A DNA stretch of 32,000 nt from Telmatocola sphagniphila. Its GTDB lineage: Bacteria > Planctomycetota > Planctomycetia > Gemmatales > Gemmataceae. Position 1 is the first letter of the stretch, and every line of letters starts with the position of its first letter. The notes under the pieces were generated by a model, which was not told where the DNA came from, did no database searches, and saw only the letters and a program-made list of their open reading frames with translations. Below, piece by piece: positions 1,068 to 22,541 of the stretch. The stretch lies in contig NZ_CP074694.1 of the NCBI RefSeq assembly GCF_018398935.1, positions 5,190,001-5,222,000 of the forward strand. The letters run 5' to 3'. Made by a program: the position numbers and the translations under genes.

Positions 1068-1391
1068 TCAATCCTTCTTCTTCCCGCCTACGACAATCTT
1101 GGTCACCACTTCCTTGCCGTCCCGCGTGTCCGTGAAGATCGTGGCTTCGACCCCTTCCTTTACCGATTTCAAGCCATCGGGCAGCTCAGGCGTTTTAGCC
1201 CCTTTGCCTTTCTTATGAAAGGTCGCAGTCTTATCGACACTCAGAACCTTCTGCTTGCCGTCCACGGTGATAGTGATCGTACTGTCTTCACCGTCGCGCT
1301 TGATCTTGCTGATTTTGGAGGTGTACTCCTCCGCCGAGATCAGACTGATGAAGACGAACAGGGCGACAAAAGGGGCCAGCATTCTTCGCAT
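1068..1391 (-). CDS. Small secreted Lys-rich protein (hypothetical)
   Basis: 107 aa with an N-terminal signal peptide (MRRMLAPFVALFVFISLISAEE). The mature part is K/T/G/D-rich and ends GGKKKD. Confidence 0.6.
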   Translation of the reverse strand: MRRMLAPFVALFVFISLISAEEYTSKISKIKRDGEDSTITITVDGKQKVLSVDKTATFHKKGKGAKTPELPDGLKSVKEGVEATIFTDTRDGKEVVTKIVVGGKKKD

Positions 1392-1602
1392 CGCAATAAT
1401 CTCCTGATTTCGGCTAAGAACTCGTTAGGGAATTGAACCCGAACCCACCCGGCCGGTTTCGAATACTCGCTTATCCCCACATTCCCAAGAGTATCAAACC
1501 CTATTTTAGCTTAAAAAGCTCATATATTCTTATGTTTGATCTTGCATTAGCTCGAATTGCCCGTTATTCGCAGTAAATTATCCGAATAACTGGAATCGAA
1601 TT

Positions 1603-2079
1603 ATGCCTCGTTCACGAATTTCGATTGCTCTATTGGTGGGACTATTCTCGATTGGTTGTGCCTCGCTGACTTCCACCCCTTTGTCCTCGGAATCTGTCGA
1701 GATTGCACCTCAAGTGCCCCGAGTTGAAGAGTCGGAAACGCAAAATACTTACTGGGGCGGCCTGACGGGGCAACTGAGTCAGGCCGGGCACTGGGTCCAG
1801 TCCAACGTCAGTTTTAATACGGCCCTGATCTATTGCAATAATGGCCAGCACTGGCTGCAGGAAAACGAATCGGTGAAAATCGGCCTCGAATATATGTCTC
1901 AAGCGAAATCGTGGGTCGTTGAAAATGTCTCGGTAAAGACCGTGATGCTTCAGGTCGACAAAGTCGATCGCTGGATGGAAGACAAGGAAACGCTGAAGAA
2001 GAGCTTGTACGGCGTGGAATTAATGGCGCAAGTTGTAGGTGTTGTCGGCGGCGTTGCTGCGAAAGTGGCGCTGCACTAA
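1603..2079 (+). CDS. Putative lipoprotein (hypothetical)
   Basis: 158 aa. The signal peptide has a lipobox-like end, LVGLFSIGC. The body contains an internal repeated motif: WVQSNVSFNT / WLQENESVKI / WVVENVSVKT. Confidence 0.6.
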   Translation: MPRSRISIALLVGLFSIGCASLTSTPLSSESVEIAPQVPRVEESETQNTYWGGLTGQLSQAGHWVQSNVSFNTALIYCNNGQHWLQENESVKIGLEYMSQAKSWVVENVSVKTVMLQVDKVDRWMEDKETLKKSLYGVELMAQVVGVVGGVAAKVALH

Positions 2080-2120
2080 TTGAAGTCAAATCTTTCAGTT
2101 TTTTTCGAGCGATTGAAATC

Positions 2121-2477
2121 ATGATCTACCGTAGCCCCATATCCCTTTCCGCGATCCTCGGCCTGCTCTTGAGCGGCTGCACTTTTTCTAAGCCCCAACC
2201 GGATGGCAGCGTCAAGTACACGCCGTATGGTAAGTTGGTTCGCTGGTCGGATCGCCATCCTTTACTTCCATCCAAAGAACAGGCTACCGCATTAGCCGTG
2301 GTGGGAGTGGCCGCCGTGGGGTTGGGCTACCTTGCGCTTCACGAGATAGAAAAAGGTCGCCTCAACCTCGATTTCCTTTCGGAAGATGACAACACCACTT
2401 CGGACAACACACAGAATCAAAACGCGACTCAAGCTCCAAGCCCGCCTCCTCCACCTCCTAAAGCTCGCTCCCATTGA
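2121..2477 (+). CDS. Putative lipoprotein with a hydrophobic segment and a Pro-rich tail
   Basis: 118 aa with a canonical lipobox LLLSGC. It has a hydrophobic stretch (ALAVVGVAAVGLGYLAL) and a C-terminal SPPPPPPK. Confidence 0.6.
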   Translation: MIYRSPISLSAILGLLLSGCTFSKPQPDGSVKYTPYGKLVRWSDRHPLLPSKEQATALAVVGVAAVGLGYLALHEIEKGRLNLDFLSEDDNTTSDNTQNQNATQAPSPPPPPPKARSH

Positions 2478-2532
2478 TTCGAAATTTCCCGAGATTCAAC
2501 ACCCGGCCGATTCCGAGACCTAGAATAAAGGA

Positions 2533-2814
2533 ATGAGCAGCGAGACAATCACCTGCCCGGATCGCCCGATGTTAATCCGGATACTCGAGGGAAAAGCCCC
2601 ACCAGAAGAAGGGGAAGCGCTGGCTCAGCACGTCGAAAACTGTCCCCAGTGTTCGGCTCAAATCCTTCGCCTCCGGGAAGAATCAACTCCAGTTCCCTTA
2701 TCCGTACCCCCACAACTGCAGCGCCCCTGGAAAGCGTTCTGGATGTTCGCGGCCACCCTGCTGATCGTTTCCATAGCCATCTACTGCGTAGTGCAGCAGG
2801 TACATCGCCCGTAA
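2533..2814 (+). CDS. Small zf-HC2 (ZAS-type) anti-sigma-like membrane protein
   Basis: 93 aa. It contains HVENCPQC, which is the H-x3-C-x2-C motif of zinc-binding anti-sigma factors, and a single C-terminal TM helix (FWMFAATLLIVSIAIYCVV). There is no adjacent sigma factor gene. Confidence 0.55.
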   Translation: MSSETITCPDRPMLIRILEGKAPPEEGEALAQHVENCPQCSAQILRLREESTPVPLSVPPQLQRPWKAFWMFAATLLIVSIAIYCVVQQVHRP

Positions 2815-2896
2815 CTGCCTGTTCCGAGCTTTTGGCACATCGCTTGCGTTATTCAGCGTCAAAATTTCAGTCCCGCGGGCGGCACAAGAGTTTTCG

Positions 2897-3955
2897 ATGA
2901 AAGTCTTCCATTGCGATCACTGTGAGTCTCTGGTCTTCTACGAGAATTCGCAGTGCATGAATTGCGGCAACACTCTGGCTTACCTGCCCGATGTCGGGGA
3001 GGTCTGTTCGCTCGATCAGGGGCAGGATCAGCTCTGGACCTCTCCGAACGATCGGGCGAAGGGGAAGAAGTATCGACTTTGCTCCAACTACTGCAATGCC
3101 AATGTTTGTAACTGGGCCGTTTCTGCCGAGCAGGATAACGAGTTCTGTCGATGTTGCCGGCTGACGCGGGTCATCCCCGATCTCTCGATCGCCGGGAACG
3201 ACCGGGCCTGGTACAAACTTGAAATCGCCAAACGGCGCTTGATCTATGATCTGCTCCGATTGCAACTGCCGGTGCAGAGCAAACAAGAAGATCCCGAGCA
3301 GGGACTGGCCTTCGAATTTCTCGGCAACACCACTCAGACCATACTTACCGGCCACGAAAATGGCGTCATCACCATCAATATTGCCGAGGCCGACGATACG
3401 GAACGTGAGCGACGCCGTTCCCAGTTGCACGAACCCGTACGCACACTGCTGGGTCATTTTCGGCACGAAATCGGTCATTACTATTGGGATCGGTTGATCG
3501 CCAACGGCCATCGGCTGCTCGAGTTTCGCCAGCTCTTCGGCGATGAACGACAAGACTATTCCGCCGCCTTGCAGAGGCACTATCAGGAAGGACCGCCGGC
3601 CGACTGGACCGAGAGTTACGTCAGCGCCTACGCCAGCTCGCATCCCTGGGAAGACTGGTCGGAAACCTGGGCCCATTATCTGATGATTGGCGATTCTCTG
3701 GAAACGGCCGGGGCCTGCGGTTTGAGCTTGAAACCCCGCCGACGTGATGAGCCGACGCTCAAATCGGCTCCTTCGACGAACAATTCTTTCGACAAATTAA
3801 TCGAAGCCTGGTTCCCGCTGACTTACGCGCTCAACAATCTGAACCGGGGCTTGGGTCATTCCGATGCTTATCCCTTCGTTTTATCGTCTCGAACCGTCGA
3901 AAAATTGCGATTCGTACACCAAACCATTTATTTGAATGAGGAAAGTCAAAAATAA
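2897..3955 (+). CDS. Zinc-ribbon plus HExxH putative zinc metallopeptidase-like protein
   Basis: 352 aa. The N-terminal double CxxC zinc ribbon reads CDHCESLVFYENSQCMNCG. An HExxH motif sits in HFRHEIGHYYW. This architecture matches the zinc_ribbon/DUF2248 plus putative zinc-binding metallopeptidase family as I remember it. Confidence 0.8.
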   Translation: MKVFHCDHCESLVFYENSQCMNCGNTLAYLPDVGEVCSLDQGQDQLWTSPNDRAKGKKYRLCSNYCNANVCNWAVSAEQDNEFCRCCRLTRVIPDLSIAGNDRAWYKLEIAKRRLIYDLLRLQLPVQSKQEDPEQGLAFEFLGNTTQTILTGHENGVITINIAEADDTERERRRSQLHEPVRTLLGHFRHEIGHYYWDRLIANGHRLLEFRQLFGDERQDYSAALQRHYQEGPPADWTESYVSAYASSHPWEDWSETWAHYLMIGDSLETAGACGLSLKPRRRDEPTLKSAPSTNNSFDKLIEAWFPLTYALNNLNRGLGHSDAYPFVLSSRTVEKLRFVHQTIYLNEESQK

Positions 3956-4261
3956 GCCGCAGTTAATGAATATCTCGAACGAGTGTTTGAGCGATTTCAT
4001 TTGTGATTTTATCCGCTTATGCGCCACGAACGAACCAATTGGCGCTTTCCGAACTGTTTAGGCGATTTCGCTACACTCCGCAGAGAGTATTTGTTTGCTA
4101 AATACCCCCTAATCCGCGAAAATTCCAACATCAAAGAGCCACCTGGTGCCGAACCCGGCTGGTTGCCGGATTATAAGGGTTTACCTATAATCACACTCTT
4201 TGAAAATTCGGCATTAATTAAATGCTGATTGGAATGTTAAAGAGTTGGATAGGAAGGACTC

Positions 4262-4750
4262 ATGCGTTTCAACCTGGTCGATCGCATTGTGGCGTGGGAA
4301 CCGGGCAAGACGCTGAATGCGGAAAAATATCTGACGCTGGGTGAAGAGTATCTGCGCGATCATTTCCCGACGTTTCCAGTTATGCCGGGTGTGTTGATGC
4401 TGCAGAGCGTGGTCGAAGCCAGTAGCTGGCTTTGGCGCATATCTCGAGATTTCGACAGTACCGTGATTGCACTGCGGGAAGCCCGAAACGTAAAATACGG
4501 CACCTTCATGGAGCCGGGACGGATAATGGAAATAGCGGTTGAGCTCATCAAGACGGATGGTTCGACCGCGACCTTTCGGGGCAAGGGAAATATTAAAGGG
4601 GGAGCGCAAACCGTCAGCGCTCAGATCGTTCTGACCGCATATAACGTGTCGGAGAAGAGTCCCCACGGCGAGATTTTAGACGAAAAACTCAATCGGCACT
4701 GGCGGGAACGCTTCGCCTGGCTGAGTGGGGAGTTTCAAAAGGCTAATTAG
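4262..4750 (+). CDS. FabZ/FabA-like hotdog-fold 3-hydroxyacyl-ACP dehydratase homolog (catalytic Glu position is Gln)
   Basis: 162 aa. The DHFPTFPVMPGVLMLQSVVEAS block aligns to the FabZ GHFPxxPxxPGVLxxEAxAQ block. His is retained. The Glu position reads Gln, and a Glu sits four residues later. Confidence 0.8.
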   Translation: MRFNLVDRIVAWEPGKTLNAEKYLTLGEEYLRDHFPTFPVMPGVLMLQSVVEASSWLWRISRDFDSTVIALREARNVKYGTFMEPGRIMEIAVELIKTDGSTATFRGKGNIKGGAQTVSAQIVLTAYNVSEKSPHGEILDEKLNRHWRERFAWLSGEFQKAN

Positions 4751-4780
4751 GCGGGTAGCGAAAGCGACCTGAGGATATAC

Positions 4781-5545
4781 ATGCTTTTGAAGGATCAAAT
4801 AGCTCTGGTAACCGGCGGGAGCCGGGGTATCGGCCGCGGCATAGTACTGGCTCTGGCAAAAGAAGGAGCCAAGGTTTGCTTCGTCTACAAAGGCAGCGAA
4901 GCGGCCGCCAAGGCTCTGGAAGTCGAAGTCCAGACGGCCGGGGGTACGGCATTGGCCATCCAGGGCGACGTTTCCAAGTCGGACGAAGCCAATCGAATCG
5001 TCGAGAAGGTTCTGGCCGAGCAGGGCCGGATTGACATCCTGGTCAACAACGCCGGGGTGATTCGCGATGGCCTGTTTTTGCGCATGAGCGAAGAGGACTG
5101 GAATACGGTAATAAACACTAACCTCGGCGGGGTTTTCAACTTCTGCCGTGCAGTTTCCGCACAAATGGCGCTGAAACAAAGGTCGGGGCGCATTATCAAT
5201 ATAAGTAGCGTGGCGGCCGAGCATGTGAATGCCGGTCAGGCCAACTACGCCGCCAGTAAGGGAGCTGTGAATAGCTTTACTAAAGTACTGGCTGTGGAAC
5301 TGGGCAGCCGGGGCGTGACCGTGAATGCGGTGGCCCCCGGATTTATTGAGACCGATATGAGTGAAGCGGTTCGCAATAAAGCGGGCGACTTCATTGCCAA
5401 AAAATTGGTGCCCCTGCGCCGGCTCGGCAAGCCGGAAGACATTGCCAGTGTGGTGGTGTTCCTGGCCAGCCCGGCGGCGAGTTATGTGACCGGGCAGGTT
5501 ATCACGGTGGACGGCGGCCTGTGTCTGGGTGCCGTTTCCGGTTGA
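4781..5545 (+). CDS. FabG-family 3-oxoacyl-ACP reductase (SDR)
   Basis: 254 aa. It has the Rossmann motif TGGSRGIGRG, an NNAG motif, and the Ser...YxxxK catalytic set (ISSVAA...YAASKGAV). It lies 30 nt after the preceding gene. Confidence 0.9.
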   Translation: MLLKDQIALVTGGSRGIGRGIVLALAKEGAKVCFVYKGSEAAAKALEVEVQTAGGTALAIQGDVSKSDEANRIVEKVLAEQGRIDILVNNAGVIRDGLFLRMSEEDWNTVINTNLGGVFNFCRAVSAQMALKQRSGRIINISSVAAEHVNAGQANYAASKGAVNSFTKVLAVELGSRGVTVNAVAPGFIETDMSEAVRNKAGDFIAKKLVPLRRLGKPEDIASVVVFLASPAASYVTGQVITVDGGLCLGAVSG

Positions 5546-5591
5546 CCCGAATTTCAGCGGTTGGCGATAGGAATTTCAGGAGATTGTTTCC

Positions 5592-5981
5592 ATGACTAAG
5601 GAAGAGATATTCGACAAGGTGAAGGCGACCCTCGTAGATTCGCTCAACGTGGATGACGCCGAAGTCACCCCCAAGTCGACTCTTCAGGGCGATTTGAATG
5701 CCGAGTCGATCGACTTCCTCGATATCGTCTTCCGTCTCGAACGCGAATTCGGCATCAAAATCGACCGCGGCGAACTCTTCCCCGAATCGATTTTTCAGAG
5801 CGACAGCGAGTTCGTCAAGGATGGCAAAGTCACCGAAAAAGGCATCGAAGAACTGAAAGCGAAAATGCCTTTCGCCGACCTGAGCGACTTCATCAAGAAT
5901 CCGACGCTGGAAGCCATCAGCAATCTGTTCACCGTCGAATCGATCGTGAACTTCATCGATATGAAGCTGAAGGCCAAATAG
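5592..5981 (+). CDS. Acyl carrier protein with a roughly 45-aa internal insertion
   Basis: 129 aa. The phosphopantetheine-site helix-II block LQGDLNAESIDFLDIVFRLEREFGIKI aligns to GADSLDxVELVMxLEExFxIxI. The terminal helix reads TVESIVNFID. The intervening segment is far longer than in a ~78-aa AcpP. Confidence 0.8.
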   Translation: MTKEEIFDKVKATLVDSLNVDDAEVTPKSTLQGDLNAESIDFLDIVFRLEREFGIKIDRGELFPESIFQSDSEFVKDGKVTEKGIEELKAKMPFADLSDFIKNPTLEAISNLFTVESIVNFIDMKLKAK

Positions 5982-6037
5982 TTTCCGGTACCGGTTCACG
6001 GTGTCCCAACCGGCTCGCGAAGAACGGATGACTCTCT

Positions 6038-6544
6038 ATGCGTTGGGTCTGGATCGATCGATTTGTGGAGTTTCAATCGCGCCAGCGGGCAGTGGCCGTT
6101 AAAAATCTCAGCATGGCTGAGGAATTTTTCGACGAACACTTTCCCGGCTACCCGGTTATGCCGGCGGCCTTGTTTCTGGAAGGTTTGGCCCAGACCGGCG
6201 GTATACTTGTAGGTGAAGCGAATGACTTTAAAGAAAAGGTCGTTCTCGCTAAAATCCCGACGGCAAAGTTTCATCGCGAAGTCTTTCCGGGGGAACAGCT
6301 TACGTACACCACGGAAGTGCTGATTCTTCGCGAAGAGGGAGCTTCGGTCCGCGGCACGATCCATGCCGGGGCGGAGCTAGTCGCCGAAGCGGAAATTTTC
6401 TTTGCCCATCTGGATCAGGCTCGCAGCAAGCAAATGTTCGGGGATTCGAACTTTGTTTTCACTGGCGAATTGAAAAATCTGCTGGGACTCGCCCGTCTGG
6501 CAGCGAACGGCTCGTCAAACACCGAGGAGGGTGCCAAGGCGTAA
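6038..6544 (+). CDS. FabZ/FabA-like hotdog-fold dehydratase (canonical His/Glu)
   Basis: 168 aa. EHFPGYPVMPAALFLEGLAQTGG retains both the His and the Glu of the FabZ dyad block. Confidence 0.8.
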   Translation: MRWVWIDRFVEFQSRQRAVAVKNLSMAEEFFDEHFPGYPVMPAALFLEGLAQTGGILVGEANDFKEKVVLAKIPTAKFHREVFPGEQLTYTTEVLILREEGASVRGTIHAGAELVAEAEIFFAHLDQARSKQMFGDSNFVFTGELKNLLGLARLAANGSSNTEEGAKA

Positions 6545-6640
6545 CGCCGGGATGTCCTTTAAGTTTTTGCCGGCTTGCAACAACGGCAACGGATCGCGCA
6601 GGAGCGCGAACACCTGATTATTACCCCGGAGACTTACACC

Positions 6641-7915
6641 ATGGCTGCCAGCACAAGAAGATCGGTGATTACCGGTATCGGCGTGCTCTCCGCCGTCGGC
6701 ACCAACCCCGCGACTTTCTGGGAAAATCTCAGCGCTGGCCGAACCGGCATCAAACGGATCCAGCACGTCGATCCCGAACAGCTTCCCTTTCGCGTGGCTG
6801 CCTACATCTCCGACTTCGACGCCAAAAAACAGATCGACAAGAAAATGCGGAAAGCGCTGAACGTCATGGCGCGCACCGTGCAGCTGGGAGTCGTCGCCGC
6901 ACAACTGGCGATGGAAAATGCCAAGATGGGGGAAGGGCAACTCGATCCCGCCCGCTTCGGCATCGAATTCGGCGCCTCGATGATCGCTTCCGATCTCGAC
7001 GATATCGCCCGCGCTTCCAAAATCAGCACCAACTGCAAGCCCGGCTTCGTCGATTACGAAATCTGGGGCGCACAAGGCCTGTCGCAGATTCCTCCCTTGT
7101 GGATGTTGAAGTATCTGCCGAACATGCCCGCCTGCCACGTTTCCATCCAGCACAATGCCCAGGGGCCCAACAACACCATGACGGCCAGCGACGTGGCCGG
7201 GATTCTCGCGCTGGGTGAAGCCTTCCGAATCAGCGAACGGGGCACCGCCGACTTCTTCCTGGTCGGCGCCACCGAGAGCAAGATGAACCCGCTCTCGCTT
7301 TCCCGGCATGCGACCTTCCAGCAGCTTTCCCGAAAATTCGAACACCCCGAGAAAGTGCTTCGTCCGTTCGATCAGGGCCGCGATGGCACGGTCATGGGAG
7401 AAGGCGCCGGCGTGCTTGGTCTGGAAGATCTGGAACATGCCACCAAACGCGGTGCGAAAATTTACGCCGAACTCCTCGGCTTCGCTTCCGGCTTTGACCG
7501 CAAAAAAGACGGCGAAGTCCTGGGTAAGATCATCCTCAAGGCTTTGAAAGAGGCCCGCGTTTCTCCTGAGGAAATCGACCACGTCAATGCCCACGGGATC
7601 GGCACACCCTCCGCCGATATCATGGAGGCCCGCGGCATCGCTAATGTTTTCGGCACCAAAACACCTGTGGTCGCTTACAAACCCAATTTCGGCACTATGG
7701 GAGCGGCCGGCGGATTGGTGGAACTCACGGCCAGTATTCTCGCCTTGGAAAACGGACTGCTGCCGCCCACTCTGAATTGCGAGAATCAGGACCCGGCCTG
7801 TCCCATCCACATCCATAAAGAGGGACTGCGTCCTGTAACCAAACCTCACTTCGTGAAAATCAGTTTCACCGATATGGGGCAAGTAGCTGTAGCCGTCCTG
7901 AAAAAGCCGGAATGA
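6641..7915 (+). CDS. Beta-ketoacyl synthase-like protein with a degenerate active site (chain-length-factor-like partner)
   Basis: The thiolase-fold KS is alignable along its full length to FabF (RRSVITGIGVLSAVG..., GAKIYAELLGF, HVNAHGIGTP). The active-site TACxSG block reads TASDVAG (Cys to Ser). KSMTGH reads KPNFGT (second His to Thr). The terminal NSFGFGG reads ISFTDMG. I prefer the ATG at 6641 to the TTG at 6575 used in the track. Confidence 0.85.
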   Translation: MAASTRRSVITGIGVLSAVGTNPATFWENLSAGRTGIKRIQHVDPEQLPFRVAAYISDFDAKKQIDKKMRKALNVMARTVQLGVVAAQLAMENAKMGEGQLDPARFGIEFGASMIASDLDDIARASKISTNCKPGFVDYEIWGAQGLSQIPPLWMLKYLPNMPACHVSIQHNAQGPNNTMTASDVAGILALGEAFRISERGTADFFLVGATESKMNPLSLSRHATFQQLSRKFEHPEKVLRPFDQGRDGTVMGEGAGVLGLEDLEHATKRGAKIYAELLGFASGFDRKKDGEVLGKIILKALKEARVSPEEIDHVNAHGIGTPSADIMEARGIANVFGTKTPVVAYKPNFGTMGAAGGLVELTASILALENGLLPPTLNCENQDPACPIHIHKEGLRPVTKPHFVKISFTDMGQVAVAVLKKPE

Positions 7916-8055
7916 TCCCTCGATTTGAGGGGCTGTTGCGACAATCCCCACAATCGTATCGGCCGCTAGATTCCGGCCGCAATCCGGCAAGATTAGTCAT
8001 TCGATTTGCGCAAGTCGCGATCGATTGCGGGTACTGATATAGTAGGAGATGCAAC

Positions 8056-9348
8056 ATGGCTCGACGTCGGGTAGTGGTGACGGGTGTGGGGATGATTACC
8101 CCAATCGGTCATACGGTTGAAGAAACCTATCGCAACCTCTGTGAAGGCGTCAGCGGCGTCGATCTCATTAAGCACTTTGATGCAAAGACTTTTCCAACCA
8201 AATTTGCAGCCGAAGTAAAAAATTATGACCTCGGCAAATACGTCAAGGATGTCTCCAAGTACGATCAGTCGGGACTGAATACCCGGTTCGCACTCGGCTC
8301 GGCCTTTCAGGCTCTGTCGGATGCCAATTTAATCGACAATCATTCGATCGATCGGTTGGACATCGGCGTTTATCTCGGCTCGGGGGAAGGCAGCCACGAT
8401 TTTCATCATCTGGTGGAATCGACGGGGAAGTCGGTCGACGAATCGATGAAGCTGAACGTCCAGAACTATTTCCACTCCGCCCTTCAGACTCTGAAGGGGA
8501 AGCGCGAATACGAAATGGAAATGCACACCACGGCCGGTCATCTGGCGGAAGAGTTCGATCTGCAAGGTCCGAACTACACCTGCTTGACCGCTTGTGCTGC
8601 CAGTAGCCAGGCCGTCGGCGAGGCCACCGAGCTGATCCGTCGTGGCGATGCGAAAATCATGTTGAGCGGGGGTTCCCATTCCATGATCCATCCGTTCGGG
8701 GTCACGGGGTTCAACCTGCTCACGGCTCTTTCGACGCACAATACGGATCCCAAGAAGGCCAGCCGACCGTTCGATCTGACCCGGGATGGCTTCGTTTTGG
8801 GGGAAGGTTCCGGCATGGTGGTGCTGGAAGAACTCGAGCACGCCAAAAAACGCGGAGCTCCCATCTATGGCGAAATCACCGGATATGGTACGACGGGCGA
8901 TGCCTATCGCATGACTGATAGCCCGCCGGACGGCCGGGGAGCAGTGGCTAGCATTCGGATGGCATTGAAAGATTCGGGTTTTGGTTTGACTGACATCGAC
9001 TACATTAATGCTCACGGAACGAGCACTCAGGTAAACGATTCTTCAGAAACTATTGCCGTGAAGACGGTTTTTGGCGAACAAGCTTATAAAATACCGATGA
9101 GCAGCAACAAAAGTATGCACGGACATTTAATTGCTGCTACGGGCGTGGTAGAAATGATCTCGAGTTTGATGACGATCCGGCATGGCGTGCTGCCGCCGAC
9201 GATCAATTATCAGACCCCCGATCCGGAGTGCGATTTGGATTACGTGCCCAATGTGGCCCGGCAGAAGCCGGTGAAAAATGTTCTAAGTAACAGTTTCGGC
9301 TTCGGTGGTCAGAACATTACCTTGATCATCAGCCGATTCGATAAGTGA
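8056..9348 (+). CDS. Beta-ketoacyl-ACP synthase, FabF/KAS II-like, with an intact Cys-His-His triad
   Basis: 430 aa. Motifs present: RRVVVTGVGMITPIG, LTACAASSQAVGEA (Cys), YINAHGTSTQVND (His), NKSMHGHLIAATG (His), and NSFGFGGQN. Confidence 0.9.
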   Translation: MARRRVVVTGVGMITPIGHTVEETYRNLCEGVSGVDLIKHFDAKTFPTKFAAEVKNYDLGKYVKDVSKYDQSGLNTRFALGSAFQALSDANLIDNHSIDRLDIGVYLGSGEGSHDFHHLVESTGKSVDESMKLNVQNYFHSALQTLKGKREYEMEMHTTAGHLAEEFDLQGPNYTCLTACAASSQAVGEATELIRRGDAKIMLSGGSHSMIHPFGVTGFNLLTALSTHNTDPKKASRPFDLTRDGFVLGEGSGMVVLEELEHAKKRGAPIYGEITGYGTTGDAYRMTDSPPDGRGAVASIRMALKDSGFGLTDIDYINAHGTSTQVNDSSETIAVKTVFGEQAYKIPMSSNKSMHGHLIAATGVVEMISSLMTIRHGVLPPTINYQTPDPECDLDYVPNVARQKPVKNVLSNSFGFGGQNITLIISRFDK

Positions 9349-9599
9349 GGATCCTGCGGATAATTTGTATTGCGCGGAAAGGATAAAAGTCTTTCCATCA
9401 TTATGACAAGTAATACAAAGACAGAACGTAGACTTGGACTCTCGCGCATGTAAATTGTATAAAGTGAAGAATTCGGGGAGACGTTTTCTCATAAAGAGCC
9501 GACGTCTCCCGGTGAACCGCGTATGGACACCCACACACCTGGCCCACTTGACTCTCGCCGCAGGACGCGTTTCGCCGGTCTTTTTGGAGTGCTTAGCTG

Positions 9600-10619
9600 A
9601 TGAGTTTAGTCTGGTTGGGAATCATCATAGTTTTCGCACCACCCGCCGTGGCTTTTTTGCTCGTCATGGCGATGTTCTATTATGTGAAGACCAAATTCGA
9701 GGGTAAACTCCTACGCATATTCCAGGAAAAGCCTCTTTTCATCATCCCGCGCGGCGACCGGATTGATCGGGCCGAGCAAGTGAACATTCCCACGCAGGAT
9801 GGTGGCAACCTCTGTGGATGTTATCTTAAGAGCGAAGCTCCCGAGCGCAAGGGGGTAATTCTTTTTGGTCTGGAATACGGTTCGAATCGCTGGTCCTGCC
9901 TGCCCTATTGTGAAGAATTGCTCAAAAATGGGTACGATGTTTTCGCTTTCGAACCGCGCGGCCAGGGCGAAAGCTCTGCCATCGCCAACTACAAGCCGTT
10001 GCAATGGCTGACCCGCTATGAACTCGAAGACACCCTGCTCGCCATCGAATATCTCCAGGCCCGGCCCGACGCCGATCCCAACGGCATTGGCTTCTTCGGT
10101 ATTTCCAAGGGGGGAAGTGCCGGTTTGATGGCCGCTTCCCAGCACGCCTACATCCGTTGTGTTGTCACTGATGGGGCGTTCGCCACCGTCGGGACCATGA
10201 TTCCCTACATCCGAAAGTTCGCCAACATCTATAGCAACAACGATATGCTTAAGGACCTGCTGCCCGACTGGTTCTTCAGCATGTTCGCCAAGAGCGGCGT
10301 TCGTCAGCTCGGCAAAGTGCTGCAAGTCGAATACATGCACATCGAACCGGCCATGAAGAAGCTGAAACGGCCGCTGATGATGATTCATGGCGAGAAGGAC
10401 ACTTATATCCGCGTGTCGATGGCCGAAGACCTCTATCGTCGTGCGGCCCAGCCCAAGAAATTCTGGGTTGTTCCCGGGGCTAAGCACAATCAGGCTCTCA
10501 ATGTCGCCGGAGCGGAATATCGCGAAAACGTGAAGGCCTTCTTCGACTACCACCTCGCCGGTATCGAGCCGGGCTCCAAGCCGGTCTCGGTCGATTTGCC
10601 GGATAACGTGAGCTTGTAG
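9600..10619 (+). CDS. Membrane-anchored alpha/beta hydrolase
   Basis: 339 aa with an N-terminal TM helix (LVWLGIIIVFAPPAVAFLLVMAMFYYV). It has the nucleophile elbow GISKGG, then HGEKDTYI (Asp) and GAKHNQ (His) in the usual order. Confidence 0.75.
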   Translation: MSLVWLGIIIVFAPPAVAFLLVMAMFYYVKTKFEGKLLRIFQEKPLFIIPRGDRIDRAEQVNIPTQDGGNLCGCYLKSEAPERKGVILFGLEYGSNRWSCLPYCEELLKNGYDVFAFEPRGQGESSAIANYKPLQWLTRYELEDTLLAIEYLQARPDADPNGIGFFGISKGGSAGLMAASQHAYIRCVVTDGAFATVGTMIPYIRKFANIYSNNDMLKDLLPDWFFSMFAKSGVRQLGKVLQVEYMHIEPAMKKLKRPLMMIHGEKDTYIRVSMAEDLYRRAAQPKKFWVVPGAKHNQALNVAGAEYRENVKAFFDYHLAGIEPGSKPVSVDLPDNVSL

Positions 10620-10629
10620 GAAAGCGGTA

Positions 10630-10662
10630 AGCTATCAGCTATCAGCTATCAGCTATCAGCTA
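10630..10662. repeat. Perfect heptanucleotide tandem array (AGCTATC) x ~4.7
   Basis: Read directly: agctatc agctatc agctatc agctatc agcta. It starts 11 nt after the stop of the hydrolase gene. Confidence 0.95.
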
Positions 10663-10752
10663 GAAGATCGGGCTATCATTTTTTGTCCGCACGGCGGAAA
10701 TTAGTTCAAATTTTTACCAGCATGGCGTAGAGTAGTTCAAAATGGACTATCA

Positions 10753-10834
10753 AACGCTGAACGCTGAACGCTGAACGCTGAACGCTGAACGCTGAACGCT
10801 GAACGCTGAACGCTGAACGCTGAACGCTGAACGC
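10753..10834. repeat. Perfect heptanucleotide tandem array (AACGCTG) x 11 plus 5 nt
   Basis: I counted eleven exact copies with no degenerate unit. The array ends 20 nt upstream of the ATG at 10855. Confidence 0.95.
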
Positions 10835-10854
10835 CCCCAACTCCCTCTCCACCC

Positions 10855-12312
10855 ATGAAAATTCCACTTCCCAAAAATCGGTCCCTTCGCTGGGGACTGT
10901 TTTTTAGTCTCCTGTGTTTCGGTTTTTATCTAAGCCTGGCTCTGTACCGCTGGAAGATCGGGCGGGATTCGGCCCGGGAACTTCAGGAGATCGTCGAGCG
11001 ACTGAATCGCGAAGATCCGGGTTGGGATTGGGAGTCGTTCGTTAACCGGCCCTGGACGATCCCCGACGACAAAAACAGCTTCACCATTCTGAAACAAATC
11101 TTCATCGCTCCTAAGTTCAAAATCTTAGAAATCGACCCCAATATTCACGATTGGCGCATTCTTCCGGAGAAGATGCCACCGGAGGTCTGCGAGTGGGTCA
11201 GCACGTATCTGAATGATCGTAGGGAGGCTGTCGAGCTCTGTCGAAAGCTGGTGGATTATCCCGAAGGACGACATCGGATCCAGTATTCGGAAGATATCAT
11301 CAGCACCTTGTTACCCACGGTACAGGATACCCGGGTCGTAGCATCTCTCCTGCAGTGGGATATCCGCATGCAGTCCCAGCTGGGAAATTTCGACACCTGC
11401 GTGCAGGACTTGCGCGCGATGCGAAATGCGGCTCGCTCCTTCGGCGATGAAGGTTTCCTGATCGCCGCACTCGTTCGCATTGCCATCGATACCATTTTTT
11501 GTCAAAGCCTTCAGGAAATGCTCTCCCAGGGTGAAACGACGGAAGCGCAACTGGCGTTATTACAAAAGGAACTGGCCGAGGAATTGGCCGATGAATTCCC
11601 CTATCGTTCTTTGCGCTGCGAGCGGGCCATCATGTTTTACATGGTGAAATATTTCGGAGAAAATCTGGGATTGAACAAACAAAGTTTACGGGTACTCAAT
11701 GGCCTCGCTGGGCCTTCCCCCAATGAACCCAACCAATTCCAGTCGGCCTTGTTGACGTTCCGCTATCCCCCCTACGCCAAGGCGGATCAGGCTTATGCTT
11801 TAAAAATGATGACAGCGTATATGGAAGCCTACCGGCTGCCGTTAGAGCAGCGAAACCAAAAATTTGAGGAATTGGATGAGAGTTTCAAAGTCTCTCGAGG
11901 AATGTTTCAAGCCAAAACTTTGCTGACGAACTTACTGTTTCCCAGTGTCAGCAAAATTTATCAACGAAGTGAACCCCGGCGGAAAGCGCTGCTCCGTTGC
12001 ACCCTTCTGAGCATCGCCAGCGAAAGATTTCGTCTGGCCAACAAACGCTGGCCCAAGTCGCTCGAGGAACTTGTACCGAAATTCATTGAAAAAATCGATG
12101 TGGATCCTTACACCGAAACCCCTTTGAAATTTTTGACTCTTCGCGATGGAATCGTCATTTACAGTGTTGGGGAAGACCGCCTCGATGATGGGGGTGCGGT
12201 TTTACCGAATCAAAATCCCAATTTCGAGCGGGGCCAATATGCCCAGGGCAGCAACGGGCTCAGCAAAGATATCGGCTTCCGGTTGTGGAACACGGAGAAG
12301 CGGGGAAGATAG
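10855..12312 (+). CDS. Signal-anchored hypothetical protein with a pseudopilin-like C-terminal motif
   Basis: 485 aa with an N-terminal TM helix (WGLFFSLLCFGFYLSLALY). The C-terminus DPYTETPLKFLTLRDGIVIYSVGEDRLDDGG resembles, by eye, the DPW..P..Y....YS.G.DG..GG tail of GspG-like proteins. Confidence 0.7.
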   Translation: MKIPLPKNRSLRWGLFFSLLCFGFYLSLALYRWKIGRDSARELQEIVERLNREDPGWDWESFVNRPWTIPDDKNSFTILKQIFIAPKFKILEIDPNIHDWRILPEKMPPEVCEWVSTYLNDRREAVELCRKLVDYPEGRHRIQYSEDIISTLLPTVQDTRVVASLLQWDIRMQSQLGNFDTCVQDLRAMRNAARSFGDEGFLIAALVRIAIDTIFCQSLQEMLSQGETTEAQLALLQKELAEELADEFPYRSLRCERAIMFYMVKYFGENLGLNKQSLRVLNGLAGPSPNEPNQFQSALLTFRYPPYAKADQAYALKMMTAYMEAYRLPLEQRNQKFEELDESFKVSRGMFQAKTLLTNLLFPSVSKIYQRSEPRRKALLRCTLLSIASERFRLANKRWPKSLEELVPKFIEKIDVDPYTETPLKFLTLRDGIVIYSVGEDRLDDGGAVLPNQNPNFERGQYAQGSNGLSKDIGFRLWNTEKRGR

Positions 12313-16213: not shown

Positions 16214-17236
16214 ATGTCACGAACACCAGTTATTTTAATTACCGGGGCTTCCGGCGAAATTGGCCACGGTTTGATAGAGCGACTTTCAACCAGCCAGAAA
16301 AAACCGATTGTCACCCTCGACCTGGCGCCACTCGCCCCCGGGTTGAGTTCGAAAGTCCGGCAGCATTACATCGGGTCGATTCTCGATAGCACACTGCTCG
16401 ATCGCATCCTGGCCGAATTCGAAATCGATATGATTTTCCACCTGGCGGCCGTGCTTTCCACCGGGGGGGAATTCGCGCCGCTGGTGGCTCATAAGGTCAA
16501 CGTCGAAGGCACTTTGGCGATGCTGGAATTCGCCCAGCGCGAAGGAGAATCGCACGGCCGCCCCGTAGTGTTTCTTTATCCCTCTTCGATTGCCGCTTAC
16601 GGCATTCCCAATTTGAAAGCGAAGGCCGAAGCGGGTCGCGTTCGGGAAGAGCAGTTCAACACGCCCACCACCATGTACGGCTGCAATAAGCTCTATGGCG
16701 AACATCTGGGGATCTACTACGCCGGGCACTACAAGCAGCTCTCGGAAACTCCGCTGGCAGGTAAGGTCGATTTTCGGGGCATCCGATTTCCCGGTCTGAT
16801 CTCGGCCATCACCCTTCCTTCGGGTGGTACCTCCGACTTTGCACCGGAGATGATTCACGCGGCGGCGCAGGGCAAGCCCTATGCCTGCTTCGTCCGGCCC
16901 GATACTCGCATCCCCTTCATGGCCATGCCCGATGCGATTGAAGCCATGATCAAACTGGCCTTGGCCGATAAATCGAAGCTCTCCCGGCACGTTTACAATA
17001 TCGATGCGTTCAGCCCGACCGCCGAGGATGTCGCAGCCGTGGTTCGCAAGGCTTTTCCCAAAGCGGAACTGTCGACGGTCGTCGATACCAAACGACAGGG
17101 CATCGTCGATACCTGGCCAGCCGAGGTTGATGATTCAACGGCCCGACGCGACTGGGGTTTCGAACCGCGTTACAATTTCACCAAAGCTTTTGAAGAATAT
17201 TTGATTCCGACCATTCACCAGCGTTATGCTGAGTGA
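16214..17236 (+). CDS. NAD-dependent epimerase/dehydratase family protein (L-threonine 3-dehydrogenase-like)
   Basis: 340 aa. It has the Rossmann motif ILITGASGEIGHGL and YGCNKLYGEHLGIYY (YxxxK). Its overall layout resembles the extended-SDR TDH group. Confidence 0.8.
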   Translation: MSRTPVILITGASGEIGHGLIERLSTSQKKPIVTLDLAPLAPGLSSKVRQHYIGSILDSTLLDRILAEFEIDMIFHLAAVLSTGGEFAPLVAHKVNVEGTLAMLEFAQREGESHGRPVVFLYPSSIAAYGIPNLKAKAEAGRVREEQFNTPTTMYGCNKLYGEHLGIYYAGHYKQLSETPLAGKVDFRGIRFPGLISAITLPSGGTSDFAPEMIHAAAQGKPYACFVRPDTRIPFMAMPDAIEAMIKLALADKSKLSRHVYNIDAFSPTAEDVAAVVRKAFPKAELSTVVDTKRQGIVDTWPAEVDDSTARRDWGFEPRYNFTKAFEEYLIPTIHQRYAE

Positions 17237-17867: not shown

Positions 17868-18022
17868 AGTGCTTTCGACTAGCTATCATAGGGATTAATA
17901 CTTACCCGGTTTCGCCGGGCGTCCATCCAAGATAAGCTTTTAACGATCCAAATAACCTCTCTCTTTGGATGGATATGTGCGAATGCACATGTCAAATTCC
18001 ATTTGCTGCAGAGAGGGCTTCC

Positions 18023-18484
18023 GTGCAACTCACTCAGTTTTCGGACTATTCCCTTCGGACAACGCTGTATTTGATGGCTCACCCGGAACGTCTGGTTGCC
18101 GTGGAGGAGATCAGCAAGGCGTATTCCATCTCTCGCCATCATCTGGTGAAAGTGGTTCAACGGCTGGTCGAACTAGAATTTATTGTGGCTCTGCGTGGTC
18201 GCAACGGCGGCATGCGGTTGGCCAAAAAGCCGGAGGAGATTAATGTAGGTCAGATGGTGCGAGGCACCGAGCCGAATTTCAATCTCGTGGAATGCTTCGA
18301 TGAGGTGCACAATACCTGTCCTATTTCATCGGTCTGCGGATTGAAAGGGGCGCTCTATCAGGCGAGGGAAGCATTTCTGAAGGTGCTGGATAGCTACTCT
18401 CTGGCCGACTTCCAGAGTAACTCGTCGCAGTTGATCCCGTTGTGGGAACTCCGACTGCGGGATTCGGAGAAGGTGGTGGTGTAG
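18023..18484 (+). CDS. Rrf2 family transcriptional regulator (NsrR/IscR-like)
   Basis: VQLTQFSDYSLRTTLYLMAHPERLVAVEEISKAYSISRHHLVKVVQRLVELEFIVALRGRNGGMRLAK is a typical Rrf2 winged HTH. Three spaced Cys (ECF...NTCPISSVCG) could ligate an Fe-S cluster. I prefer the GTG at 18023. The track start at 17969 adds an atypical Cys-rich leader. Confidence 0.85.
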   Translation: MQLTQFSDYSLRTTLYLMAHPERLVAVEEISKAYSISRHHLVKVVQRLVELEFIVALRGRNGGMRLAKKPEEINVGQMVRGTEPNFNLVECFDEVHNTCPISSVCGLKGALYQAREAFLKVLDSYSLADFQSNSSQLIPLWELRLRDSEKVVV

Positions 18485-18835
18485 GGGGGTGCAGGGAAAA
18501 GAGGGTCGAACAGAGTTTGCGACCGTAGTCACAAGCCACATCCTATGGCTAGCTTTAACCCGTTATCCGGGCTTGCCTTGTCTGGAACTGGCTATCTGCC
18601 AGCGCAGATTCAAAATATCAGACCTCGCTATAACAGGGCAATCATCGATTTCATAATTTAACGCGAGATGAGGATTGAGGCCTTTTCAGATACCCGATCT
18701 TTCACTCGCTGGTAATTAGCCACGGGCACCCGACTGCTGGCAGGAAGTGTCGCTGGCGAAAGCAGCTGCGCCCTGAAAATTGAGCAAGATTGTTCGAGCG
18801 ATTTCTCCAGTAAACCTTCAAGTTGGGAGAAGGGC

Positions 18836-19084
18836 ATGAGTATCAAAGGTTACTTATACTTGGGTTGTGTCGTGGTCGCCGTGACGATGTCATCGAAGGT
18901 CGCGACGCGCGGCGGAGGTCCCGGCACGTGGAGTATCCTGCTCGCAGCTCTTGGTGGACTGACTCTTTTGCTCATCCTGGATCTTTGGGGATTTATTCAA
19001 CAGCAGGATTCCGACAAACGAACGGTTAGCAAGAGAAAAAGTCGCAAGCGTCGGATGAAGGATTCAGGTCAGAATTTTACCTGA
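18836..19084 (+). CDS. Small two-TM membrane protein with a basic tail (hypothetical)
   Basis: 82 aa with two hydrophobic helices and a KRKSRKRRMK tail. A purine-rich stretch (gggagaaggg) sits directly upstream of the ATG. Confidence 0.4.
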   Translation: MSIKGYLYLGCVVVAVTMSSKVATRGGGPGTWSILLAALGGLTLLLILDLWGFIQQQDSDKRTVSKRKSRKRRMKDSGQNFT

Positions 19085-19341
19085 AAATTTAGCGCTACTT
19101 ATGGGTGTTGATTAGACCGAGTTTTAAAACTGAAAATACACCCCTCTGAAGTAGGAAGTTGGAGATAACCGAATTCTTCTTTAAAAATCGAGGTCTAAAT
19201 CAGTCGGACAGGCCAGTTTATATTAACGAGCGCTTGTGGGTAAAAACAACGAAATTTGCCCGCTGGGGAATTAGTTAATTAGTACCTAAGTTAAAGTTAT
19301 TTGCCTTACAAACAACCAATTCGATTTTAGATAAATTATTA

Positions 19342-19370
19342 TTGACAATTAATAAAGCAAAGATTAAGCT
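19342..19370 (+). promoter_or_regulatory. Sigma-70-like promoter candidate (TTGACA-17-TAAGCT)
   Basis: It lies in a very AT-rich intergenic stretch about 30 nt upstream of the 19400 start. The -35 element is perfect and the -10 is weak. The promoter consensus for this lineage is unknown to me. Confidence 0.2.
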
Positions 19371-19399
19371 ACCAGAAATCAGTAATCTTAACCAGAAGA

Positions 19400-19858
19400 A
19401 TGCAGATGGTTCGCAAGGTTCTAGATTTTAGGTTGTCGCGCTCTGCTTTCCTTCTGATTATGGCTGTCGGGGGCGTAACAGTCGCGACTTCATTAAGCAA
19501 TTTTGCTAATGCGGGAGAAAAGACGCGACTTCCAGGTGTTCCATATAATCCTGGCACAGCGCCAAGTGGATGGGTTTGTAATCCCGCGGCAACAGTTCCA
19601 TGCGGTTGTGTGGATGTGTCCGGCAATCCTCCTGTGTCCTGCAAAAACCCAGATACTTCTCTTATTCTGATCTGGTGCACTGAAACCGAAACTACAACTC
19701 CTTGTACTAGCGCAGCTACATTCGACTGTCCCGGCGGGACGGATGGCAATAAATTCAAAGGTCTGTGCGGAGCTGATGGTGCAAGAAGTTTGAATCTTGC
19801 TTGTAATAATGTAACTGTGACGACTTGTTCAGGTTACACAGGTACAATCGGTAATTAA
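19400..19858 (+). CDS. Secreted Cys-rich (10 Cys) Thr/Gly/Pro/Asn-rich small protein
   Basis: 152 aa with a signal peptide ending SLSNFANA. The mature ~114 aa contains 10 Cys (WVC, PCGC, SC, WC, PC, DC, LC, AC, TC). I recognise no family. Confidence 0.65.
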   Translation: MQMVRKVLDFRLSRSAFLLIMAVGGVTVATSLSNFANAGEKTRLPGVPYNPGTAPSGWVCNPAATVPCGCVDVSGNPPVSCKNPDTSLILIWCTETETTTPCTSAATFDCPGGTDGNKFKGLCGADGARSLNLACNNVTVTTCSGYTGTIGN

Positions 19859-19860
19859 AA

Positions 19861-19890
19861 TCGATTTGATATATTTCCCGTTCAAATCGA
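19861..19890 (+). terminator. Hairpin directly after the stop of the Cys-rich protein gene
   Basis: 9-bp stem tcgatttga / tcaaatcga with a 12-nt loop, starting 3 nt after the stop. There is no clear U-tract, so this is a weak terminator call. Confidence 0.3.
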
Positions 19891-20012
19891 ATGACTTTGA
19901 GCTAGTTGATAAAAAATAATTCGCTGAGATATTTGCATCTCGGCCATTTCAAATTCGTGAAAAGATCGCTCTCTATCCCCACGGCATAAGTTATTGAGAA
20001 TAGGATCGGCTT

Positions 20013-21098: not shown

Positions 21099-21106
21099 CG
21101 CCCTGA
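20853..21106 (+). repeat. 254-nt block identical to 22252-22505 (3' end of paralog A plus 8 nt past the stop)
   Basis: My base-by-base comparison of the two printed stretches found no mismatch. Identity begins at acattgct and ends at ccctga. Confidence 0.9.
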
Positions 21107-21411
21107 ACGGGCAAAATCGGCAATTGATCCTGATTCAGAATCTGAAGCAAAATGTCTATCTTAAGTAGATAAATAGAGCCAATTAATGTGAAAAAATTAT
21201 CTTGGCATAATTCTTTCAAAAGCACCCTCGATCAGGTTACAGATGTCGGTTGAAGAGTGCCGCGTTGTCTTTTCACGTAGCAATGTGAGCTTTATTTATT
21301 CAAAAGTCGAGCTAGTTTCATTTCAAAAAATCGAGTGGCTGCTGGGTAAGAATACTTCAGCAGCGATTCTTGGTCCAGCTTGGCATAAGTTTCTTACAAC
21401 GAGTCGGATTT

Positions 21412-22497: not shown

Positions 22498-22505
22498 CGC
22501 CCTGA
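22252..22505 (+). repeat. 254-nt block identical to 20853-21106
   Basis: See the paired feature at 20853-21106. Confidence 0.9.
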
Positions 22506-22541
22506 CTCAAAAATAAGCAATTAACCAATTGAGGTTTAGTC

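Follow-up and report, generated by a model that had tools for sequence, protein, structure and literature searches.

A compact run of fatty-acid-synthase-like genes lies at positions 4262-9348 of a 32,000-nt stretch of Telmatocola sphagniphila DNA (contig NZ_CP074694.1, positions 5,190,001 to 5,222,000 of the forward strand; the whole stretch is referred to here as the window). We interpret this operon, together with a hydrolase gene that follows it, as a dedicated and self-contained acyl-chain module of the Gemmatales, which is neither the housekeeping system that makes fatty acids by the type II route (FAS II) nor an aryl-polyene (APE) cluster, and we judge this interpretation to be about as probable as all of its alternatives taken together. 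The conserved ketosynthase (KS) with Asp or Glu in place of its nucleophile, the enlarged acyl carrier protein (ACP) and the link to a GH3-family enzyme were unexpected; the anatomy of the cluster is solid, while its product and mechanism are inferential. An incomplete search of the literature found no description of the operon, of the long ACP or of the link to a second GH3 lineage.

The operon consists of six genes on the forward strand, beginning with DH1 (4262-4750, QVL31267.1), which encodes a FabZ-like hotdog dehydratase (DH) subunit of 162 aa. It is followed by the ketoreductase (KR) gene (4781-5545, QVL31268.1; a FabG-type 3-oxoacyl-ACP reductase of 254 aa), the gene for the long ACP (5592-5981, QVL31269.1; PP-binding, 129 aa), DH2 (6038-6544, QVL31270.1; a FabZ-like dehydratase of 168 aa), KSb (6641-7915, QVL31271.1; a degenerate FabF-like ketosynthase of 424 aa) and KSa (8056-9348, QVL31272.1; an intact FabF-like ketosynthase of 430 aa). 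The coordinates of the open reading frames (ORFs) gave intergenic gaps of 30, 46, 56, 96 and 140 nt from DH1 to KSa, as a preliminary description made from the sequence had reported for six co-directional genes, and Pfam and NCBIfam profiles confirmed the domain calls of that description (two hotdog dehydratases, a FabG-type KR, an ACP and two KSs). The mechanical ORF of KSb opens at TTG 6575, and the deposited protein QVL31271.1 opens at ATG 6641. A gene for a membrane-anchored alpha/beta-hydrolase (9600-10619, forward strand, QVL31273.1; 339 aa, with a Ser169/Asp267/His296 triad) begins 251 nt after KSa.

To define how widely this arrangement is kept, relatives of KSb were scanned with one genome per species; at least 576 were found, and the best 80 were all from Gemmatales, with 47-58% identity. 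Synteny was counted over the loci of these best 80, and the denominators that follow are the loci evaluable at each position. Of 58 loci, 55 had the series DH1-KR-ACP-DH2 on the upstream side of KSb; KSa was directly downstream of KSb in every one of 66, and a homologue of the alpha/beta-hydrolase gene at 9600-10619 came after KSa in 51 of 60. The gene order recurs across these 80 Gemmatales loci and is more than a chance arrangement. Because it follows KSa in so many loci, we count the hydrolase gene as the seventh member of the unit, which the six-gene boundary drawn earlier had missed. With the Limnoglobus locus as the reference, no further conserved flanking genes were detected; that reference has no adjacent GH3 gene, and the GH3 linkage described below emerged from the Tuwongella context, not from the Limnoglobus-referenced flank comparison. 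One variant (locus L083, positions 1891-6844; GCA_053940405.1, GC 66%) has the order DH1-ACP-degenerate DH2-KSb-KSa-hydrolase and no KR. Its KSb is 386 aa long, with the N-terminal KS domain alone detectable, and a TPR Ser/Thr kinase gene follows the hydrolase. Since this cluster lacks a KR, enzymes acting in trans can apparently serve the long ACP. Three other loci (L008, L018 and L073) are titled 'uncultured Alcaligenaceae bacterium' and carry the planctomycete cluster, with KSb identities of 53-57%; these labels are probably wrong.

Both ketosynthases are complete proteins, in which Pfam detected the N-terminal and the C-terminal halves of the KS fold. KSa has been correctly described as an intact FabF-like enzyme: its triad, Cys180/His320/His357, was invariant in 66 orthologues. 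It shares 41% identity with E. coli FabF (314 bits by BLASTP), scored 477.1 bits against TIGR03150, which is below the cut-off of 493.75, and passed the subfamily model NF005589 (FabF-II) with 472 bits at a cut-off of 387. KSb reached 295 bits against the same TIGR03150 cut-off. When KSb was aligned to E. coli FabF and FabB, using ungapped anchors on both sides and the flanking GPN and GEA motifs, its Cys column was occupied by Asp184. Thus, the absence of the active-site Cys, as first described, was borne out, but the replacement is not the Ser that had been named; Ser183 is the neighboring residue, one position off. At the other active-site positions KSb retains the first His (H318), while Thr352 stands in place of the second and Asp411 in place of the gate Phe. 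Over the 80 orthologues, the Cys column contained Asp in 69, Glu in 11 and Cys in none, the first His position was His in 51, and the second was Asn in 60. Because KSb is full length, shares a mean identity of 52% with its orthologues and in every one of the 80 carries an acidic residue where the Cys would be, it is, to judge from these sequences, a retained non-catalytic partner and not a decaying duplicate. KSa is most readily viewed as the condensing enzyme, and by analogy with known pairs the two proteins would form a heterodimer resembling that of a KS and a chain-length factor (CLF).

The PP-binding match of the long ACP spans residues 8-63 only. The region of helices I and II is canonical, and Ser39 sits in an invariant AESIDFLD motif, while alignment with E. 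coli AcpP revealed an insertion of ~50 residues ahead of helix IV. This insertion, and a score of 50.2 bits against an equivalog ACP model with a cut-off of 70.45, agree with the initial view of the protein as a non-canonical ACP. In the AlphaFold2 (AF2) model (pLDDT 95.4), the insertion is folded as a hairpin plus short helices, and a structure search found no PDB ACP that covers it (TMq at most 0.54). The long-ACP family is large: a library clustered at 50% contained 664 representatives that matched at E<=1e-10.

The two dehydratases differ in the completeness of their catalytic residues. DH2 (Pfam FabA, 63.6 bits; FabZ models, 100.1-102 bits) has a complete His34/Glu48 pair, both residues being invariant in 74 orthologues. 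In DH1 (Pfam FabA, 51 bits; FabZ equivalog models, 65.9-68 bits), the catalytic His34 is present and invariant in the orthologues, and the position of the catalytic Glu is a Gln in Telmatocola; over 62 orthologues this column, equivalent to Glu68, contained Gln in 42, Glu in 17 and His in 3. Both proteins fell short of the FabZ cut-offs of 113-155.15. The KR, which has a mean identity of 70% to its Gemmatales orthologues, scored 298.6 bits against TIGR01830 at a cut-off of 297.75, a marginal pass, and it is the sole window protein to reach its FAS II equivalog cut-off; KSa, KSb, the ACP, DH1 and DH2 all remained under theirs.

The hydrolase matched the Pfam families Abhydrolase_1, Hydrolase_4, Peptidase_S9 and BAAT_C, and its residues S169, D267 and H296 were invariant in 30 homologues. 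Its AF2 model (pLDDT 88.9) begins with a hydrophobic helix formed by residues 2-37, and Foldseek placed it near esterases and lipases as well as DcsB and GrgF, which are polyketide thioesterases that act in trans. We propose that it is the chain off-loading enzyme, in the simplest form a thioesterase; the structural neighbors are compatible with this role and do not prove it.

A GH3-family gene adjoins the hydrolase gene on its downstream side in 35 of 48 evaluable Gemmatales loci. No GH3 gene is present in the 32-kb Telmatocola window; the genome encodes an unlinked GH3 protein (P0483), which is 60-66% identical to the cluster-linked ones. P0483 contains the three Pfam domains GH3, GH3_M and GH3_C, and its PDB matches were GH3-1, JAR1, GH3.5, GH3.6 and GH3.12 (E 1e-30 to 1e-19, over residues ~20-545). 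It is, therefore, homologous over its full length to the plant acyl-acid amido synthetases and belongs to the GH3 family. The hydrolase-GH3 pair persists apart from KS genes at locus L085 and in Zavarzinella formosa (L099). In the latter (JH636441.1), a phosphopantetheinyl transferase gene (Pfam ACPS, 16282-16965) is located ~4.5 kb downstream of the detached pair and on the same strand, with several ORFs without a Pfam match in between. We also considered the legionellol cluster of Legionella as a precedent for the GH3 gene; it is a weak one, since knocking out the GH3 gene was without effect in that system, and we set it aside.

The first description of the window had noted the absence of an enoyl reductase (ER), of FabD and of FabH. 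Pfam and NCBIfam profiles likewise identified no FabI-, FabD- or FabH-like protein among the window ORFs scanned, and E. coli FabD and FabH used as tblastn queries against the window returned noise matches only. The genes plsX, fabH and fabD were absent from the window and also from the conserved flanks of related loci. A polyunsaturated product had been predicted from the missing ER; this prediction is possible but not secure, given the evidence from the KR-less L083 that trans-acting enzymes can serve the ACP.

Comparison with known systems was used to place the module. The proteins of the window were nearer to FAS II enzymes than to their counterparts in aryl-polyene, aromatic polyketide synthase (PKS) or anammox systems. 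APE systems and the cluster follow the same logic: one KS is accompanied by an inactive partner, a KR and two hotdog DHs work with dedicated ACP(s), an ER is missing, and both an adenylating enzyme and a thioesterase belong to the set. The adenylating enzyme here is of the GH3 type, not the ApeH type. Membership in the APE clusters was rejected by BLASTP against the ape proteins of E. coli CFT073, since all window proteins were nearer to E. coli FabF, FabZ, FabG or AcpP. KSa scored 314 bits with FabF, compared to 223 with ApeR and 139 with ApeO; KSb scored 193 bits with FabF, compared to 148 and 68 with these two Ape KSs, and showed no similarity detectable by BLASTP to the short ApeC (240 aa). 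DH1 matched ApeI weakly (21.6 bits, E 0.08), DH2 matched neither ApeI nor ApeP, and FabZ was nearer to both. The KR shares 48% identity with E. coli FabG and 37% with ApeQ. The ApeI-like Pfam family PF22818 had no match in the window proteins, and precomputed matches to it exist on orthologous DHs. No APE accessory genes (LolA/MMPL, DUF3261, acyl-, glycosyl- or methyltransferase, ApeH-type) were found in the window or the conserved flanks. The caveat of the preliminary description, that the operon could be a different planctomycete lipid module and not an APE system, was well placed. Its statement that APE accessories are absent applies to LolA/MMPL and the transferases and fails for the adenylating enzyme, as most relatives have a GH3 gene beside the cluster and Telmatocola has an unlinked one.

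Relationship to the KS/CLF of aromatic type II PKSs was also rejected, as the Cys column of KSb is Asp or Glu in 80 of 80 orthologues and not the Gln of CLFs. Against PDB sequences, the actinorhodin KS (1tqy_A) scored 263 bits with KSa and 182 with KSb, compared to 375 and 230 for canonical FabF, and canonical FabFs outscored 9s5h, 1tqy, 6kxd, 6smo and 7f27, including Iga11 and AntD, for both KSs. The ishigamide enzymes Iga10-16 (PDB 6kxd) form a highly reducing type II PKS, in which a heterodimeric KS/CLF works with a KR, a DH and an ACP to produce a polyene acid that ends as an amide. The relationship to this system is weak, with 6kxd_A scoring 214 bits with KSa and 144 with KSb. In rhizobia, the cluster acpXL-fabZXL-fabF2XL-fabF1XL-lpxXL supplies an ACP of its own together with one FabZ-like DH and two FabF-like KSs, takes the remaining activities from FAS II, and yields an (omega-1)-hydroxy very-long-chain acid. 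The Telmatocola cluster differs from it by the ~50-residue ACP insertion and by encoding a KR as well as a second DH. The specialized ACP of R. palustris (2kw2) matched the long ACP with 33.4 bits, compared to 48.9 for ordinary ACPs, and no acyltransferase of the LpxXL/LpxL family was found in the window or the conserved flanks.

The module would operate in the manner of a secondary FAS that contains a KS/CLF, or of a highly reducing type II PKS. Its closest functional analogue is the KS pair of anammox Cluster I, where the gene of a FabF that has lost the Cys-His-His triad directly precedes that of an intact FabF (bioRxiv 10.64898/2026.05.19.726425). These proteins, amxFabFmut and amxFabF2, assemble into a KS/CLF-like heterodimer, which initiates synthesis by decarboxylating malonyl-ACP (bioRxiv 10.64898/2026.05.19.726425; PDB 9s5h). 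The two clusters come from the same phylum and share the order of an inactive and then an active FabF, a non-canonical ACP, a FabZ variant and the absence of a cis ER. Scores against PDB sequences nonetheless led us to reject orthology to the anammox FabF pair, amxFabZ and amxACP: 9s5h_B gave 294 bits with KSa, compared to 375 for canonical FabF, 9s5h_B and 9s5h_C gave 167 and 132 bits with KSb, compared to 230, and the amxFabZ structures (8ay*) scored no better than ordinary FabZ with the window DHs. In addition, the Cys is replaced by Val or Thr in the anammox protein and by Asp or Glu in KSb, and the Telmatocola cluster has a KR, a second DH and the hydrolase/GH3 linkage. The B12-radical-SAM and phytoene-desaturase-like genes of Cluster I were not found in the window. 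An acidic residue at the Cys position has been noticed before in Rhodopirellula baltica, which has five FabB/F paralogues; two of these, NP_865682 and NP_866153, are atypical, with Asp or Glu at Cys163, and were left unexplained (Rattray et al. 2009, PMC2649909). NP_866153 keeps His298 and Lys328 and has Asn333, and the corresponding KSb pattern is Asp/Glu, mostly His, Lys and mostly Asn. Orthology is suggested by this residue signature; the paper describes no operon context, partner, ACP or linkage for the R. baltica paralogues.

A planctomycete alpha/beta-hydrolase gene is also paired with a GH3 gene in ornithine lipid synthesis. OlsH, the GH3 protein of Singulisphaera acidiphila, is ATP-dependent and converts a free fatty acid, including 3-hydroxy fatty acid, to N-acyl ornithine, while the acyl donor of OlsI was not identified; the gene context of a ketoacyl synthase or acyl carrier protein is not mentioned in that work (PMC12493201). 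For comparison we used a Singulisphaera-type operon (L090), which was located by the N-terminus of Sinac_1601 taken from a published primer. The olsI-olsG-olsH operon is found at 1127-4291 on the minus strand of this JGI metagenome contig, and also on contigs L088 and L089; a Ser/Thr kinase gene lies upstream and there are no FAS-like neighbors. The hydrolase was rejected as an OlsI, since its match to the OlsI-like protein of L090 reached 20.8 bits over 127 residues at 20% identity, which leaves nothing in common beyond the fold, and the linked GH3 proteins, together with P0483, were rejected as OlsH, with 25-26% identity to the OlsH-like GH3. Moreover, the Tuwongella homologue named in PMC12493201 is VTR97332.1, while the GH3 adjacent to the Tuwongella cluster is VTR96604.1. 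No OlsG- or OlsI-like gene was present near any cluster locus, and a search of the related loci with terminal peptides of OlsI and OlsH gave chance matches only.

In the mechanism that we propose, KSa would pair with the dead KSb as a KS/CLF-like heterodimer, in analogy to the anammox pair and the type II PKSs, and this heterodimer would extend the chain by malonyl units on the private, enlarged ACP. The FabG-like KR would reduce the 3-keto intermediate in every cycle, and the FabZ-like pair would dehydrate it, with DH2 as the complete enzyme and DH1 as a subunit that has kept its His and usually has Gln at the Glu position. A housekeeping ER could act in trans on the long ACP, a possibility suggested by the KR-less cluster, in which outside enzymes can act on this protein. 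The membrane hydrolase would then free the finished chain from the ACP, most simply as a thioesterase that releases a free acid, and GH3 would adenylate this acid and couple an amine to it, giving an N-acyl lipid of the amino-acid type. We infer the substrate of the hydrolase, the coupling by GH3 and a secondary (amino)lipid as the product. Candidate products are an N-acyl amino-acid lipid, (omega-1)-hydroxy C26-C32 acids, 3-hydroxy acids for trimethylornithine lipids, and a polyene. In its most specific form, the proposal is that of a new Gemmatales pathway in which the KS/dead-KS heterodimer and the enlarged ACP build the chain, with a bound (omega-1)-hydroxy C26-C32 acid as the leading candidate, and the hydrolase and a second GH3 lineage attach it as an amide; in this complete form we consider it rather unlikely.

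Other readings assign the same genes to particular lipids. It is unlikely, in our estimation, that the module simply makes the bound very-long-chain (omega-1)-hydroxy C26-C32 acids of the Gemmataceae by a logic like that of rhizobial AcpXL. By this route KSa/KSb would prime itself by decarboxylation of malonyl-ACP, for which the anammox FabF heterodimer is a precedent (bioRxiv 10.64898/2026.05.19.726425), the KR would give 3-hydroxybutyryl-ACP, and elongation of this primer without its dehydration would leave the (omega-1)-hydroxyl group, with a housekeeping ER acting in trans and the enlarged ACP, whose AF2 model has an extra folded subdomain, shielding the chain. Bound acids of this kind are contained in Telmatocola and Zavarzinella (PMC3327967) and likewise in Limnoglobus roseus and Fimbriiglobus ruber (PMC7397252). 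The cluster is present in Telmatocola, L. roseus (L024) and F. ruber (L087); for Zavarzinella it is known only from a metagenome-assembled genome (MAG) labelled Zavarzinella sp. (L002), Z. formosa having given the hydrolase-GH3 pair only. However, Gemmata species have the cluster (L027), and G. obscuriglobus is without the (omega-1) series and has an omega-hydroxy C24:0 acid (PMC3327967). Neither an acyltransferase of the LpxXL type nor an ER was found within the cluster or close to it, the long ACP is not specifically AcpXL-like in its scores with 2kw2 and ordinary ACPs (33 and 49 bits), and an ester attachment of the lipid A type needs no amide-forming GH3 partner. Quite unlikely as well is an ER-less, highly reducing type II PKS resembling the APE and ishigamide systems, which would make a conjugated polyenoyl chain that is then released and amidated. 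The enzyme classes are the same (active KS with inactive partner, KR, DH pair, own ACP, no cis ER), orthologous DHs have the precomputed ApeI-like matches, and the linked genes include those of a hydrolase and an adenylating enzyme; the module also brings a KR and DHs of its own when FAS II copies are presumably present, which suggests that its ACP is insulated from the housekeeping enzymes. The KR-less cluster shows, on the other hand, that trans enzymes can serve this ACP, the proteins are nearer to E. coli FAS II than to Ape, the actinorhodin KS/CLF, Iga11 or AntD, the Cys is replaced by Asp/Glu and not by the Gln of a CLF, and LolA/MMPL, acyltransferase and glycosyltransferase genes are missing. 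In the papers that we consulted, no Gemmatales polyene pigment besides carotenoids is reported, which is an absence of reports and not a test.

A role in ornithine lipid synthesis is less probable than either of these routes, and we regard it as doubtful. The module would supply free 3-hydroxy acids, and possibly the acyl donor, for (trimethyl)ornithine lipids as a counterpart to OlsH/OlsI, with the linked GH3 acting as a lyso-ornithine-lipid synthase and the hydrolase as a thioesterase or O-acyltransferase. Among the intact polar lipids of T. sphagniphila, trimethylornithine lipid ranks first in abundance, and it is a major one in Limnoglobus, Fimbriiglobus and Frigoriglobus (PMC7828035), the requirement of OlsH for a free (3-hydroxy) fatty acid fits this supply (PMC12493201), and the order of hydrolase and GH3 mirrors that of olsI and olsH. 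The beta-hydroxy acids of Telmatocola are rich in iso/anteiso-C17 and the bulk acids are straight-chain 16:1 and 18:1, which hints at a separate route (PMC7397252). Yet the hydrolase and the linked GH3 proteins resemble OlsI and OlsH too little, Tuwongella has another GH3 for its ornithine lipids (VTR97332.1), none of the loci has an OlsG/OlsI-type gene near the cluster, and a 3-hydroxy product makes two dehydratases superfluous. Least probable of all, and to us very improbable, is that the operon is the housekeeping FAS II elongation set, with FabD, FabH and FabI encoded elsewhere and KSb a decayed duplicate. Almost all of the Gemmatales loci examined have kept the cluster, the KR attains the cut-off of the FabG equivalog, KSa scores above that of the FabF-II subfamily model, all window proteins are closest to FAS II enzymes, and divergent long ACPs occur alone in housekeeping neighborhoods. 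Nevertheless, KSa, the ACP and both DHs score below their curated equivalog cut-offs, KSb is full length and conserved, with its acidic residue kept throughout, and the steady linkage is to the hydrolase and GH3 genes and not to plsX, fabH or fabD. Other planctomycetes have a canonical FAS II in addition to such paralogues; K. stuttgartiensis, for example, has a canonical acpP/fabD/fabH/fabF/fabI set alongside extra FAS paralogues. From these comparisons the operon is not demonstrably housekeeping FAS II, and it looks dedicated, as the preliminary description had argued.

Several observations weigh against our interpretation of the cluster as a dedicated, self-contained module. The Telmatocola GH3 protein appears tied to it only by orthology and by synteny in relatives, and with a gap of 251 nt between KSa and the hydrolase gene it is not certain that the two are transcribed together. 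The cluster as it occurs in Pirellulales (L098, 5763-9539 of MAG contig DATATN010000259.1) has the order DH1-KR-ACP-DH2-KSa, without an adjacent KSb or hydrolase; its KSa is 58% identical to that of Telmatocola and has an intact triad. Conversely, some Gemmataceae have an extra KSb-KSa pair (L046 and L056, from the same MAG, CANLGS01; L063 and L070; L077 and L079), which is solitary or followed by hydrolase-GH3 and has no DH, KR or ACP genes; the parts are thus separable and the system is modular. Finally, two divergent long ACPs (L081, 10001-10408, and L084, 10001-10411; 44-45% identity) stand alone with no KS or DH nearby, among the housekeeping genes polA/ruvABC/udg and scpAB/mraY/ftsW/murG, and this type of ACP may have a broader role.

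Upstream of DH1, a sigma-70-like element at 4163-4191 on the forward strand (TTGCCG-17-TATAAT, 10 of 12 matches) is situated ~70 nt before the gene, within an intergenic region of 306 nt. This region contains 6 promoter-like sites compared to 4.7 expected from shuffled sequence, which is not above background, and the evidence that the element is the promoter of the operon is weak. A terminator scan around the operon gave nothing above background, and an Rfam scan of positions 3800-10900 detected no RNA element. The cluster is flanked by genes for a zinc-ribbon and Peptidase_Mx protein (2897-3955) upstream and for a hypothetical protein of 485 aa (10855-12312) downstream, neither of which is kept beside the cluster in relatives. 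Long antisense ORFs overlap the conserved genes, such as one of 491 aa opposite KSb (6515-7990, minus strand); these have no family support, and we regard them as non-coding and as products of the mechanical ORF calling. Farther downstream, positions 18000-24000 have a GC content of 0.45-0.48, compared to 0.52-0.57 elsewhere in the window. The ORFs 19400-19858, 20013-21098 and 21370-22497 in this stretch have no Pfam match, and it terminates in a gene for a DUF1559/N-methyl (type IV pilin-like) protein (23521-24630); the stretch may be an acquired island.

KSa and KSb would constitute a second, independent pair of active and inactive ketosynthases derived from FabF in the Planctomycetota, in which a conserved acidic residue replaces the nucleophile. 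The operon adds an ACP subclass with a folded insertion, as predicted by the model, that is widespread and has no solved structure, and the linked GH3 proteins point to a second bacterial GH3 lineage connected to lipid synthesis, beyond OlsH. Because the cluster scores as FAS II and has no aryl-polyene accessory genes, rule-based genome miners may overlook it. In the literature that we consulted, we did not find biosynthetic genes assigned to the bound (omega-1)-hydroxy C26-C32 acids and the distinctive beta-hydroxy acids of the Gemmataceae, and the module, together with the hydrolase and GH3, offers a concrete set of genes that can be tested for a part in making one of these lipids.

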